The position numbers and the translations under genes were made by a program. This document shows, one piece after another, positions 2,042 to 7,660 of a stretch of 29,701 nt of DNA. This DNA comes from a virus, in UHGV virus genome UHGV-0181887. The stretch is one strand, 5' to 3'. The first letter of the stretch is position 1, and the number at the start of each line of letters is the position of its first letter. The notes under the pieces were generated by a model. The model saw only the letters and a program-made list of their open reading frames with translations. It was not told the origin of the DNA and made no database searches.

Positions 2042-2260
2042 ATGACGACAATCACCACTAGCCCATCGTTCGCCAGCTTGCTGACCAAGAGCCAGCAGAT
2101 CACGCACCGCGCCCACACTCGCGGCTGGCTGGAAACCCCGGACGGTCAATTCTTCCAGCCAAAAGCAACGGACGTGCAGTTTATTAAGCACAGCCGTTTG
2201 CCTTTCATGTCACGCCCCCGTAGCAAGCGTAATTGGCTTGTTCGCCTCTTGGGCATTTAG
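2042..2260 (+). CDS. Hypothetical early protein
   Basis: 72-aa ORF starting 3 nt after the cox stop; early-operon position; no recognisable motif. Confidence 0.5.
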   Translation: MTTITTSPSFASLLTKSQQITHRAHTRGWLETPDGQFFQPKATDVQFIKHSRLPFMSRPRSKRNWLVRLLGI

Positions 2261-2466: not shown

Positions 2467-2862
2467 GTGGTTACGTCAATTAATGCATCTGACCATCAGA
2501 CGGGCCGCCTCAAGTTTCTAGAGCAGCGCGCACGACTGCAAGCCAGCATTCATGCCAGCCGTACTAGTGACACTGCGGCCCGATTTGATCGCCTGGATGA
2601 AACACAGAAGAAGGTTGTTTTCATGCTGGCGAATGATGCTGCTTGCCGTGTTGCTGGCTTGCCGCAACTGACCCGCAATCTCCTGGCTGTGCCGTTTATT
2701 CAGATGGGCGAGGGAGAGCAAAAGACATTGTTATTAGGTATTAAACGCCTTACCGAATTTGCCGCCGTGCTGCCGTGGGAGTTTGAAGACTACGCCGCGC
2801 CGCGCGCTGAAATTCAGGCGATGCGAGACAAACCGGCGGAACCGGAAAAGCCAACCAACTAA
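2467..2862 (+). CDS. Hypothetical early protein, possibly replication-associated (occupies the P2 B region)
   Basis: GTG at 2467 with GGAGG 7 nt upstream; the alternative ATG at 2389 overlaps the previous ORF; function not recognisable. Confidence 0.45.
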   Translation: MVTSINASDHQTGRLKFLEQRARLQASIHASRTSDTAARFDRLDETQKKVVFMLANDAACRVAGLPQLTRNLLAVPFIQMGEGEQKTLLLGIKRLTEFAAVLPWEFEDYAAPRAEIQAMRDKPAEPEKPTN

Positions 2863-2932: not shown

Positions 2933-3904
2933 ATGATTCGATCTCTCGTTAAATGGCCTGGTGGTAAAGGTCGCGTTTTACCTGATTTATTGCCGGTATT
3001 GCCGAAAGGTGATTGCCTGGTTGAGCCGTTTGTGGGCGGCGCTTCTGTCTTTCTGAATACCGAGTATCGCCGTTATGTTCTGGGCGACATAAACCCAGAT
3101 TTAATAAACCTTTATCGCCAGGTTGCGCATTTTCCAGATGGCGTCATTGAGGATGCGAAGCGACTGTTTAAAGTCTTTTGCACACCGGATGGGTATGCAG
3201 ATACAAGGGATGATTTTAACTCGCGTCGCCTCTCTCACCTCCCGGCGCAAGATGGCCCCAGCGCGGAGCATATAACCCGCGCAGCGCAATTTCTTTTCCT
3301 CAATCGCCACTGCTATAACGGAATGGTTCGCTACAACCAGAGCGGCGGCTACAACGTCCCTTACGGCAAGCATAAAACCGCGCCTTATTTCCCGGAAGAG
3401 CAGATCCGTTTGTTCTCTGAAAAGGCTAATGACACAAGGGCTATTTTCTTGTGTTGCTCATTTGAAAGCACAATCAGGGTTACTACTGATTGCGCTTCCG
3501 TTATTTATTGTGACCCGCCGTACCTACCAGTAAGCGACACCGCCAACTTCACCGAATATTACAGCGGCCCATTTGGTGAGAAACAACACCGCCAGTTGGT
3601 TGCGGCCCTCGTTGATGCAAACCGCGAGACGGGCGCGTCTGTCGTGATTTCTAACAGTGATACTCCGCTGACCCGCGAGATTTATAAAAACTTCCGCTTC
3701 CAGGAAATTGCCGTTCAGCGTTCGGTAAGTGCCAACACCCTGAAGCGCGAAAAGGCCAAAGAGGTGATCGGCGTTCTCAATGTGTGCGATGGCTGCGGGC
3801 GTGCCGGTGGTGGGCGTTGTCCTGATTGCGGCCCTGCTATGGGTGACGCGACTTACAGTGAAATGTTGGCAACGGCTGCGGCAAATGGCGTGGAGGCTTT
3901 CTGA
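2933..3904 (+). CDS. dam: DNA N6-adenine methyltransferase (Dam-like) with C-terminal Cys4 zinc-ribbon extension
   Basis: Motif I VEPFVGGASVF and motif IV DPPY (VIYCDPPYLP) read directly; C-terminal CDGCGRAGGGRCPDCG; GAGAAAG RBS before ATG 2933. Confidence 0.85.
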   Translation: MIRSLVKWPGGKGRVLPDLLPVLPKGDCLVEPFVGGASVFLNTEYRRYVLGDINPDLINLYRQVAHFPDGVIEDAKRLFKVFCTPDGYADTRDDFNSRRLSHLPAQDGPSAEHITRAAQFLFLNRHCYNGMVRYNQSGGYNVPYGKHKTAPYFPEEQIRLFSEKANDTRAIFLCCSFESTIRVTTDCASVIYCDPPYLPVSDTANFTEYYSGPFGEKQHRQLVAALVDANRETGASVVISNSDTPLTREIYKNFRFQEIAVQRSVSANTLKREKAKEVIGVLNVCDGCGRAGGGRCPDCGPAMGDATYSEMLATAAANGVEAF

Positions 3905-4167
3905 TGGCTACCGCGCAGGAGTTTATTGGATTTGACCCCGCCAGTCCGGACGGGGAAATCACCGCAATGATGGTTGTTGAACGCATTTATGACCGCTGGC
4001 AATTAGGCAACTTCTGGCTGGTTGAGTTTGACGCTTTTTATGACGGTGTTTGTGTTCGTGACACTGCGGCATTTGACACCTATGCAGAATCACTAACTTT
4101 CCAGCGCGGCAGTCCGGTTACGCTGGCGGTGGTTCCAGGTTATGCCGATGATGATTTGCCATTCTGA
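3904..4167 (+). CDS. Hypothetical protein, translationally coupled to dam (ATGA overlap)
   Basis: 87-aa ORF whose start overlaps the dam stop; no motif recognised. Confidence 0.5.
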   Translation: MATAQEFIGFDPASPDGEITAMMVVERIYDRWQLGNFWLVEFDAFYDGVCVRDTAAFDTYAESLTFQRGSPVTLAVVPGYADDDLPF

Positions 4168-4175
4168 GGGCCGCC

Positions 4176-6770
4176 ATGACTGATTTTGCATGGCCCTGGA
4201 ACGCGCCGCGCGCCGCTGTTGGCCCCTACGTCTACATTCCTAAAAAAATCGCCCCGCTTGCCGGGGCGGTGGCGCATCACCCAGCCGTTAAAAAACACAT
4301 CGATCACCTTTTCAAAGAAGCTGGTTATAACCCAGAAGAAGTCCGCGACCGCAACGCGTTAATCCAGGCGCTGGACAGATGCGAGCCGCGCGGGCTGCCA
4401 TTAGCCAGACATCAGGAATTTATCCGCCAGCAAAATGAAGCCGTCAAAGCGGCGGCGGCTGCCTGGGCAGATACGCCGGAAGGAGTGGAAGCGCGCCTCT
4501 TGTCTGAGCCGTATTACATTCGCGAAGTGTGGCGTAAAAAAATTGACTGGCTGCGGACTAACCGCGAAGCACGACACATTAATGATTTTCTTATGGGCAC
4601 CGTGAAAAAATCCTTAATGCGTCTTGATGTTGTTCGACGCCAGCAAGGCACAGAAACTTATGTCCGCAGTGAGTTGGCAGCGTACTGGCAGGAGGACTGG
4701 CAACGCCTTGCTGGTTTTACTAAGCGCGAGGTGTTAAGCGCAGCATATGAAATAGCTAATCGTCTGGAGGAAATGTTTAGCACGGAGTGTGAGGCGCAAA
4801 AGCTGACCGTTGAGTCTATGACAAACGATGAGCTTGATTGGCTTTACTGGCACCTGGGCCGTGAAATGCTGGCCTTGCGTGTTGTGCCGCCAGCCTGGGG
4901 CAAGCCGTGGGAGCGCGATCGTATCTTTACCGCCATTCTTCGGATGTCTTCGCCGGACTGGTGGGGGCGTAAAATCTGGCGTTTGCGCTGTGACTGGCGT
5001 GAAAATCAACTTCGTGCAGTTGGCGCAGTAAACAAAAAAGCACACGCCTATGTAAGCGCCAGTAGCCTGATTGAGTGGGAGGAACAGCGCCGGAAAAATC
5101 GCAACTTCATGAAAAATCATGAATTGGTCGATCAGGATGGTAACGTTTCTTCGCTGGAAGACATGATTAATAAATCCACGTCTAATCCGGCTATTCGTCG
5201 CCATGAGCTTATGGCTCGCATGGCTGGTGTGGAGCTTGTCGCCCAGAGTCGCGGCGATGTCGGCATCTTCCTGACTATTACGAGTCCGTCGAAATATCAC
5301 AGCAATATCCAATCCGGGCATCATAACGGTAAATGGAATCACACCACGGTTGCAGAGGCGCAGCAGTATTTATGCCGTGTCTGGAATCGTGCTACCGCCA
5401 AGCTGAAACGCGAAGATTTGCGCCCTTATGGCTTTCGTGTTGCGGAGCCGCATCACGATGGCACTCCGCACTGGCACGCCCTGATATTCATGCCGAAAGC
5501 TGAAGTTAAAGCGACTATCGCCATTCTTCGCGAGTACTTCATTAAGGAAGACCGCGCCGAGTTGGGCCGCAATACCGGTGCGCGTTTTAAATCCAAGAAA
5601 ATGGACCCGCGTAAGGGATCGGCAACGGCATACATTGCTAAATACATTTCAAAGAATATCGACGGACACGCCCTGGCGGGTGAACTGGATGACGAAAGCG
5701 GCAAGCCGCTTAATGAAACTGCTAAATACGCAATGGCGTGGGCGTCACTCCATCGCATACGGCAATTTCAGCCGCTGGGCCAGCCACCTGTGTCTGTTTA
5801 TCGCGAGTTACGCAAACTGAGCAACCAGATCACCGCGCGCCGGAAGATAGCCAACACCTTTAAGCGCGGCGCACCACAGATTGACGATCCTGCAATGGAT
5901 GCCGTTTGTGCCGCTGCGGATGTTGGATGCTTCGCAACCTACATCATCCGCCAGGGCGGTGTGTTGGTACCGCGTGATCGCTACGTGGTGCGCCTGGCAT
6001 ATCAGCCAGCCGAGGAAATGAATGCCTATTGTGAAACGCCCGATAAAGTTTTTGGCGTTTGGTCACCCCGGCTGGGTGACGTATCCCGCATTTGTACGCG
6101 TCTTGTTAAATGGACTATTCGCGCCAAATCATCAGCTAATACCGAGGCCGAACGCGGCCCCGGTTTGGGGGTTGACGTTTGCCCGTCGCCCTTGGGCGAC
6201 GCTTGGAGTTCTGTCAATAACTCTACGGAAGACGAAAAAATCACCGATTTTCAGCCTGACGATGAGGCAGAGACAGAAAATTCAGACGATGAAATCTTTG
6301 ATTTTGACAACATGACCGATAGGCAACGTCGCAAATTGTGGAAGCGGCTCCGGGAAATGCCGCCGCCGTGCCGAAATGTTGCCCCGCCATATCCTCCAGG
6401 TAGTGATTTAGATATTGCCTGGCGGGCTGCCGCCGAAAAATTAGAGTCAAGACGCCTGGCTGAAGATGCCCAGCGCGTAGGTATGGGCCCGGCGATAGCC
6501 CGTCTGGAGTCAGAAGCTGCGTTGCATGGTCTGGAGCTTGGCGAGGCGTTGGCGGTATCGCTGTTGAAGGGTGGAAGCCTGACTGTTGGGGCAAAAGTTT
6601 ATCGCGCAAAAGTTAGCGGCGAGCTAATCACGCGTCAGCAATTCGATGAGTCAGTGAAAGTGAATAGGTTGTGGGAACGGCTGAGGGATAACCACGGTGT
6701 GAACATCACCGAGCTGAGATTTGACCCGGTTGGGGAGTATCAAAAAATGCTCAAGTTAGTCACCGGGTAA
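4176..6770 (+). CDS. A: Rolling-circle replication initiator endonuclease (P2 gpA-like)
   Basis: 864-aa ORF; HUH-type motif PHWHALIF and paired-tyrosine motif YIAKYISK characteristic of the P2 A / phiX174 A family; position after the early genes. Confidence 0.85.
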   Translation: MTDFAWPWNAPRAAVGPYVYIPKKIAPLAGAVAHHPAVKKHIDHLFKEAGYNPEEVRDRNALIQALDRCEPRGLPLARHQEFIRQQNEAVKAAAAAWADTPEGVEARLLSEPYYIREVWRKKIDWLRTNREARHINDFLMGTVKKSLMRLDVVRRQQGTETYVRSELAAYWQEDWQRLAGFTKREVLSAAYEIANRLEEMFSTECEAQKLTVESMTNDELDWLYWHLGREMLALRVVPPAWGKPWERDRIFTAILRMSSPDWWGRKIWRLRCDWRENQLRAVGAVNKKAHAYVSASSLIEWEEQRRKNRNFMKNHELVDQDGNVSSLEDMINKSTSNPAIRRHELMARMAGVELVAQSRGDVGIFLTITSPSKYHSNIQSGHHNGKWNHTTVAEAQQYLCRVWNRATAKLKREDLRPYGFRVAEPHHDGTPHWHALIFMPKAEVKATIAILREYFIKEDRAELGRNTGARFKSKKMDPRKGSATAYIAKYISKNIDGHALAGELDDESGKPLNETAKYAMAWASLHRIRQFQPLGQPPVSVYRELRKLSNQITARRKIANTFKRGAPQIDDPAMDAVCAAADVGCFATYIIRQGGVLVPRDRYVVRLAYQPAEEMNAYCETPDKVFGVWSPRLGDVSRICTRLVKWTIRAKSSANTEAERGPGLGVDVCPSPLGDAWSSVNNSTEDEKITDFQPDDEAETENSDDEIFDFDNMTDRQRRKLWKRLREMPPPCRNVAPPYPPGSDLDIAWRAAAEKLESRRLAEDAQRVGMGPAIARLESEAALHGLELGEALAVSLLKGGSLTVGAKVYRAKVSGELITRQQFDESVKVNRLWERLRDNHGVNITELRFDPVGEYQKMLKLVTG

Positions 6771-7144: not shown

Positions 7145-7648
7145 TTACTTGTTTTTTTTGAGTGGGTTCTTTTTCCATCGCTTAACTAGCCACTCGAATT
7201 CTTGATAGGTGGTCTCTGAGTTAATGTGCTCTCTGATGGCTTTAATCAGCGGTTCGGCAATATCAAACGTTTCAATTACAGTGCTGTAAGATGTGCGTTT
7301 GATCATCTCTTCGTTATAGATGCCCTCACGAATGCTGACCGCTACTCTTTCGTAAAAATTCAGAATGTACTGAAATTTTCGACGCTCAACCATTTCATCT
7401 TCAGTGATAGCACCGCCATTGCATGGGAAAACATAAGCGCGAAAAGATTTTCCTGAACGATGTACCTGTTTTAAAACGTGGAGCGATTCTAGGTATTGCG
7501 CGTCCTGGCGGCTCTCAAATAAAAAGTTTGCAGTCTGCGTTTTCTTTGCCGTTCGAACGTTGTAGATAATCGTTACGATAGCGGCAACAACACCGAGAAA
7601 AACAACGGCGCTGCTAATGATGGAAAGTGTGTTTGCGTCGAGAGTCAT
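7145..7648 (-). CDS. Membrane-anchored protein of unknown function (N-terminal TM helix, about 135-aa cytoplasmic domain); candidate exclusion/defence gene
   Basis: 167 aa from ATG 7648; hydrophobic segment LSIISSAVVFLGVVAAIVTIIY; visibly AT-richer than flanking phage genes; lies in the P2 tin/old variable locus next to cos. Confidence 0.6.
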   Translation of the reverse strand: MTLDANTLSIISSAVVFLGVVAAIVTIIYNVRTAKKTQTANFLFESRQDAQYLESLHVLKQVHRSGKSFRAYVFPCNGGAITEDEMVERRKFQYILNFYERVAVSIREGIYNEEMIKRTSYSTVIETFDIAEPLIKAIREHINSETTYQEFEWLVKRWKKNPLKKNK

Positions 7649-7660
7649 CAAATTTTATCC

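Follow-up and report, generated by a model that had tools for sequence, protein, structure and literature searches.

The stretch of DNA analyzed here, hereafter the window, is the 29,701-nucleotide UHGV virus genome UHGV-0181887. Its early operon runs in the order Cox, Fil-like protein, phrog_7428 protein, Dam, orf87 and gpA, and the portal and terminase genes lie beyond. The Dam coding sequence, the subject of this report, occupies 2933-3904 on the plus strand and comprises 323 codons and a TGA stop according to the list of open reading frames (ORFs) (ATG at 2933, TGA at 3902-3904); direct reading identifies a Shine-Dalgarno-like GGAG at 2920-2923 on the same strand, 9 nt upstream of the ATG. 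The protein, all of whose features are encoded on the plus strand, consists of a D12-class methyltransferase core (residues 8-264 by the Pfam envelope, 2954-3724), a module at residues 283-312 (3779-3868) made up of a Cys4 knuckle and the helix-forming segment 'GPAMGDATYSEML', and a variable C-terminal tip, ATAAANGVEAF-COOH (3869-3901), that ends in an acidic-x-Phe pattern. We found that the knuckle is more strongly conserved than the catalytic core of the enzyme that carries it and that the module recurs in RecE-family proteins and in small phage early proteins, and we propose that it may act as a protein-docking element.

The product of 2933-3904 is almost certainly a Dam-family D12-class N6-adenine methyltransferase, as an initial annotation made from the DNA sequence had claimed. 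The domain search that it had called for yielded matches above the curated cut-offs to both PF02086 (D12 class N6-adenine methyltransferase; residues 8-264, E 1.9e-58, 198.6 bits against a cut-off of 22) and TIGR00571 'dam' (262.9 bits against a cut-off of 114.85). Furthermore, residues 3-281 aligned by phmmer to the sequences of the crystal structures of Escherichia coli Dam (EcoDam; 4gol/2g1p) at E 3e-63. The full-length AlphaFold model (predicted template modeling score, pTM, 0.79) was confident over the core, and Foldseek matched it to EcoDam chains (2g1p/4rt*) at E 5e-27 with a target-normalized TM score of 0.88-0.92. Residues 1-282 probably form a monomeric, EcoDam-like alpha-class enzyme. 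The catalytic DPPY of motif IV (residues 194-197, 3512-3523), which aligns to DPPY 181-184 of EcoDam, was present as initially described, and D194, P195, P196 and Y197 were invariant in 43 homologues. Motif I, the AdoMet-binding segment E31-P-F-V-G-G-A37 (3023-3043; aligned to EcoDam EPFVGAG), had been given as FxGxG and does not take that literal form; it reads FxGGA, a family-conserved variant of the FVGAG of EcoDam, with E31, P32, F33 and G35 invariant and G36 and A37 nearly so in the same 43 homologues. A Dam-type gene is as such ordinary, and such genes are routinely annotated in P2-like prophages.

Beyond the core, cysteines at positions 285, 288, 296 and 299 form the double knuckle C285-D-G-C288-GRAGGGR-C296-P-D-C299 (3785-3829), with the spacing CxxC-x7-CxxC; the interval between CDGCG and CPDCG, previously counted as eight residues, is six (CDGCG-x6-CPDCG). 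Whether these cysteines persist in homologues was the point on which the initial annotation had staked its own reading of the tail, and CxxC-x(5-9)-CxxC was present in the tail of 82 of the 120 closest homologues. The Dam homologues span the Enterobacterales (Citrobacter, Yokenella, Buttiauxella, Serratia, Pectobacterium, Dickeya, Yersinia, Edwardsiella, Erwinia, Pantoea, Klebsiella, Salmonella and E. coli). Across 35 aligned motif-bearing homologues, mean pairwise identity reached 78% in the knuckle (285-299), compared to 64% in the catalytic core, 46% in the helix segment (300-312) and 24% in the last eleven residues. The four cysteines were invariant in module alignments A2 to A4, which span three protein contexts, and in A3 and A4 the GGG and P-D positions were likewise invariant across the three. 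Seven of the 120 homologues end at 277-285 residues and lack the tail, as does EcoDam with its 278 residues, and thus the tail is not needed for the fold; the same tail-less enzymes suggest that catalysis can do without it. Further homologues bear other tails, several of them again Cys-rich, such as GCPAGGCGHCPDALEC or a second Cys cluster ending in NPETW.

The module is not confined to Dam proteins, a point absent from the initial annotation. In an NCBIfam scan, the tail alone matched the profile of RecE (exodeoxyribonuclease VIII; NF007259, positions 526-556) at E 4.5e-7, and in E. coli K-12 the corresponding sequence lies at residues 517-544 of RecE (recE, L001 5787-8387, minus strand), within an acidic stretch, rich in glutamine, ahead of the nuclease domain. 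A word-indexed protein search with the tail profile gave only 10 short fragments. An exhaustive search of 1.84 billion representative proteins with this profile (42 positions, built from 29 Dam tails) returned only 33 clusters at E <= 1e-3, with RecE-like and small proteins retrieved at E ~1e-12 to 1e-7. One cluster, a 1,594-residue dockerin protein (P0132), was discarded as a false positive, being of low complexity and matched 12 times in part, each time just in the Gly/Cys half. The remaining clusters fell into three groups: Dam proteins, RecE-family proteins and small proteins. Among the RecE-family carriers, P0137, P0149 and P0154 have a C-terminal PD-(D/E)XK nuclease, P0136, P0139 and P0140 have a C-terminal DnaQ/Rv2179c-like 3'-5' exonuclease, and P0145, P0146 and P0150 have no nuclease domain. 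The small carriers are 79-190 residues long, and the module is C-terminal in P0123, P0133, P0135, P0138, P0143, P0151 and P0158 and N-terminal in P0157; matches of small carriers to the PHROG exonuclease profiles 20376 and 2082 were confined to the module. A chance cysteine pattern was rejected on the strength of the tail-only match to the RecE profile and of the matches to unrelated proteins down to ~1e-12.

Where genomic context was readable, the small carriers were found in phage early regions. One resides in a Mu-like element upstream of Kil, GemA and DUF3164, another lies between Kil and Mu Gam, and a third, in a prophage that has an integrase, adjoins RdgC and a PF05869 Dam. Loci of small carriers are L007 59-298, L024 1009-1470 and L023 4001-4540.

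The three groups share the core (K)xCxxCGxxGGGxCPDCG(P/A)xMG(D/N)ATYxE(M/T)x, in which no basic residue is invariant and the conserved positions include D, T, Y, E and M. Comparison of the Dam tail with K-12 RecE showed 17 of 28 residues to be identical, compared to only 9 of 28 third codon positions, which indicates long-term purifying selection on the peptide and an old divergence. Recent lateral transfer of a recE segment was rejected on the same third-position count. We also considered a Chi-like DNA signal within the GGTGGTGG-rich coding sequence and rejected it, as no exact Chi occurs and the recE DNA does not have the motif in common. The isolated tail had no usable Pfam match at a threshold of E <= 10, the only one being HVO_0758 at E 0.1, and in PHROG and NCBIfam the module is present only within exonuclease profiles of whole proteins, where it goes unmarked. 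Full-text literature searches turned up no account of a zinc finger, whether for RecE or for the tail of a P2-like Dam. The knuckle together with the 'MGDATYxEM' helix is a self-contained portable unit of ~30 residues and not a Dam-specific embellishment.

We next turned to the predicted structure of the tail. In the full-length AlphaFold model, the predicted local distance difference test (pLDDT) score was 57-72 at residues 281-300, fell below 50 at 300-304 and was ~50-63 in a helix at 305-317. When the module was modeled alone, from a 24-sequence alignment across contexts, the knuckle reached pLDDT 71-76 with isolated single-residue beta-bridges, and the YSEMLATAAA segment was helical. We thus describe the tail as a minimal pair of CxxC knuckles with a helix after it, and the double knuckle probably binds one Zn2+ ion. 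CxxCG and CPxCG signatures are rubredoxin-like. Of the 'appended Cys4 zinc ribbon' that had been proposed, the conserved Cys4 motif stood, whereas the ribbon fold is not established, as neither a Pfam ribbon nor a significant Foldseek match was obtained and pLDDT was ~70; with only a seven-residue glycine loop between the knuckles, a minimal rubredoxin-like double knuckle fits better than a three-stranded ribbon.

What could such a module do? We consider it an even bet that its function is protein docking. A protein partner is favored over DNA because no basic residue is invariant, because the surroundings in RecE are acidic and because the module sits at termini or in linkers. The initial annotation had left open whether the tail is an extra DNA- or protein-interaction module; recurrence in unrelated proteins, the absence of an invariant basic residue and the acidic RecE linker support the protein alternative, and the DNA alternative is not favored. 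An accessory DNA-binding finger, which would serve methylase processivity or site choice in Dam and grip DNA ends in RecE, is in our view unlikely. Many C4 knuckles in DNA enzymes do touch DNA, and weak Foldseek neighbors of the module include the zinc fingers of RecR and RadD, all at E > 4. Furthermore, the carriers with a recognized domain (Dam and the RecE-family exonucleases) are all DNA enzymes, the small ones adjoin DNA-transaction genes, and proteins of the Dam lineage usually have an Arg after the first knuckle (CGRxGGG). However, other carriers show Q, M, H or K at this position, the module in RecE is flanked by long acidic stretches, and a conserved surface of D, T, Y, E and M is atypical of DNA contacts.

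We regard as similarly improbable a role internal to Dam, in which the tail would regulate the enzyme or set its stability with no external partner, for example as an autoinhibitory lid, a redox or zinc switch, or a degron. Such a role would accord with the position of the extension directly on the last core strand and with highly variable tips, which suit tuning, and C-terminal hydrophobic ends can in general act as protease tags. Yet it does not account for the same 30-residue sequence appearing internally in RecE and at the termini of small, unrelated early proteins.

The C-terminal tips and the gene that follows Dam suggest a context in which a docking module might operate. Among 113 extended Dam homologues, 51 end in Phe, compared to a background of 5%, and 75 end in a hydrophobic residue and have an acidic one within the five positions before it; the commonest form of the tip is ..GAFDxxEAF-COOH (consensus FDxxEAF). 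The next gene, orf87 (3904-4167, plus strand; 87 codons, with a gene call on each of the four public contigs), encodes a protein that ends in DDDLPF-COOH. Its family is rare, with 8 clusters in 5.8 billion proteins, all ending in D[DE]LPF ([DN]D[DE]LPF), which nearly reproduces the DDDIPF tip of E. coli SSB. The protein had no match in Pfam, PHROG or NCBIfam, and a tblastn search of phage records gave none. Owing to the resemblance of the Phe/acidic tips and of DDDLPF, and to this resemblance only, the replisome or the network of SSB, the protein that binds single-stranded DNA, is the leading candidate context. A replisome or SSB-network protein is our leading guess for the docking partner, although as a specific assignment it is doubtful, and orf87 might act on SSB-interacting proteins as a decoy or an adaptor.

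Dam and orf87 overlap by a single shared base in TGATG (TGA 3902-3904, ATG 3904-3906), and not by the ATGA previously reported. Together with a GGAGG 7 nt upstream of the orf87 ATG, this overlap makes coupled or re-initiated translation from Dam to orf87 plausible. The Dam tails of P0078, P0106, P0110, P0111 and P0116 contain 'GFDPAxG', which is the N-terminal motif of orf87 (FIGFDPASPDG), and this suggests that these tails are Dam::orf87 fusions. An orf87 relative in a Buttiauxella prophage (L013 5984-6244) shares the N-terminal half and is without the DDDLPF tip.

The interval between Dam and gpA (3905-4175 in the window) is a variable cargo site, occupied here by orf87. In phage SW3 (L002 4375-5522) it holds a small ORF and a Dcm-type C5-methylase, in an E. 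coli relative (P0011 locus) a Dcm-type methylase, and in an Enterobacter relative (P0068 locus) a PAPS-reductase-family protein; the site was compared across L002 4375-5522, L008 4959-6056 and L010 4972-6273. That the tail is merely a recombination by-product of this junction, with mosaic 3' ends and incidental cysteines, is highly improbable: the slot does hold different genes (orf87, Dcm-type methyltransferase, PAPS-reductase) and the tail types are mosaic, some of them looking as if fused to the beginning of the following gene, but the knuckle is better conserved than the catalytic core, its four cysteines are invariant across three protein contexts, and the peptide has been kept in comparison with recE despite saturation at synonymous sites.

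The remainder of the locus identifies the window as a nearly complete P2-like (Peduoviridae) prophage of E. coli. An integrase (190-1170) and an XRE-type repressor (1313-1606) are encoded on the minus strand; Cox (1710-2039, PF10743) is followed by a Fil-like ORF of 72 residues (2042-2260, plus strand), assigned to the phage 186 Fil family via the Pfam match of an identical gene in L004, and by the phrog_7428 protein immediately before Dam (2467-2862, plus strand). The early operon ends with the rolling-circle replication initiator gpA (4176-6770, plus strand; PF05840, E 1.6e-105). In P2-like phages, the operon that begins with cox is the early one that is under repression. Between gpA and the portal gene, a DUF4760 protein of ~167 residues is encoded on the opposite strand (7145-7651, minus strand) and is possibly moron or defense cargo. 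The identical Dam protein was found on 13 public contigs with its neighbors unchanged. On 2 of the 13, insertion of the prophage beside cpxP-cpxR-cpxA was visible, with a flank 100% identical to E. coli (L003/L004 flanks). Megablast matched the Dam-orf87 DNA neither to any of 5,426 complete RefSeq E. coli genomes nor to any of 50,697 phage records, and the nearest phage records are those of the Salmonella phages SW3/SW5/SI7 (Peduoviridae), with 72% protein identity over the full length. The prophage lineage is rare, and it occurs in human gut metagenomes.

The target of the phage Dam is most likely GATC. EcoDam contacts this site through K9, Y119, N120, L122, R124, P134 and Y138; R124 contacts the guanine, Y119 intercalates, N120 forms a hydrogen bond with a base, and the first base pair is recognized by K9 and Y138 (PMC4417163). 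Five of these seven residues are identical in the phage enzyme (K7, Y128, N129, R133 and P143). Against NF008152, the equivalog of chromosomal Dam, the protein scored 262.6 bits, under the cut-off of 441, which marks it as a phage paralogue and not the housekeeping orthologue. The window contains 123 GATC sites, an observed/expected ratio of 0.87 with no avoidance, as expected for a genome that lives methylated at GATC.

Altogether, we read the gene as an early-operon Dam that carries a zinc-stabilized protein-docking module, and we put the probability of this reading at roughly 55%. In the mechanism that we envisage, Dam would most probably methylate GATC on phage DNA during gpA-driven rolling-circle replication. 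The extension of ~40 residues on the last beta-strand of the core would comprise the double CxxC knuckle and short helix of ~30 residues and then the poorly conserved tip. The knuckle would hold one Zn2+ and present a D-A-T-Y-x-E-M surface to a partner common to enterobacterial cells, and in this way the module would recruit various phage DNA-transaction enzymes to a single shared partner. For Dam, docking would couple methylation to the site of phage DNA synthesis, such that rolling-circle products become fully methylated. A more far-reaching version, which is possible and which we hold only tentatively, is that the module is a portable plug by which P2-like, lambdoid and Mu-like phages connect Dam, RecE-family nucleases and small proteins to one host hub, joined in P2-like phages by SSB-tip-like C-termini of Dam and orf87 that tether methylation to the replication fork.

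Several observations weigh against this reading. About one third of the close homologues have other Cys-rich or unrelated tails, or none, and this Dam lineage can therefore do without the module. The module was modeled by AlphaFold with moderate confidence only (pLDDT 57-76), a Foldseek search with the 47-residue module model found no significant structural match (best E 4.2), and zinc binding is read from the motif alone. The Dam tip in the window, ..NGVEAF, is itself a weak example of the acidic-Phe form, with a single acidic residue. As to specificity, two of the seven GATC contacts differ from EcoDam (L122 to M131 and Y138 to H147).

The novelty of the locus lies in the module, which is conserved, lacks a Pfam model and is common to RecE-family proteins and to early proteins of Mu-like and lambdoid phages. 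Why a phage should carry Dam in hosts that have their own is poorly explained, and a docking module would suggest that where and when the enzyme acts is what matters. The copy in K-12 RecE offers a testable handle on the uncharacterized N-terminal part of that protein. This part is of practical importance, as full-length RecE differs in its behavior from the truncated form in recombineering. If the more far-reaching version is true, it would give a function to part of this long-unexplained N-terminal region, and if one host partner binds all carriers, the module would define a new phage-host interface common to three major temperate phage groups.

Compared to known systems, the phage Dam is closest in its core to EcoDam (PDB 2G1P/4RTJ), with which it shares the Pfam and NCBIfam family, the fold, the DPPY motif and the five GATC contacts; EcoDam, however, ends ~10 residues past the last core strand, without the cysteine tail. 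The annotated Dam genes of P2-like phages (Salmonella SW3/SI7, Enterobacter phiT5282H) belong to the same GATC Dam family, and those of SW3/SI7 are 72% identical including the tail and occupy the same early-operon position. The tail is annotated in none of them, the records stating only 'Dam family methyltransferase'. RecE (exonuclease VIII) of the Rac prophage carries the same ~30-residue motif, CxxCGxxGGxxCPDCGxxMGDATYxEx, in the linker before its nuclease domain, but there the module is internal with acidic low-complexity flanks, and the remainder of RecE is unrelated to Dam; full-text literature searches found no published function for RecE segment 517-544. With rubredoxin-type knuckles and C4 zinc ribbons (RecR, RadA, TFIIS-type) the module has in common two CxxC pairs, a Gly that follows the second Cys, and a second knuckle of the form CPxCG, whereas its knuckles, unlike those of C4 ribbons, are only seven residues apart, and these are mostly Gly.

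The SSB tip, ..DFDDDIPF-COOH, is described in PMC5872125 as the docking peptide for SSB-interacting proteins. Many Dam tails, ending in ..F-D-x-x-E-x-F-COOH, and orf87, ending in DDDLPF-COOH, share with it an acidic run and a terminal Phe; this likeness is one of sequence, and the phage proteins have no OB fold. The pairing of DNMT1 with PCNA shows no homology to the phage Dam, in which there is no evidence of a clamp-binding motif, and it serves as a working model only. The analogy is one of function, a maintenance methylase being linked with the replication machinery through a short added element, and if the proposed tethering of adenine methylation to the replication fork is true, it would constitute a bacterial analogue of DNMT1-PCNA coupling.

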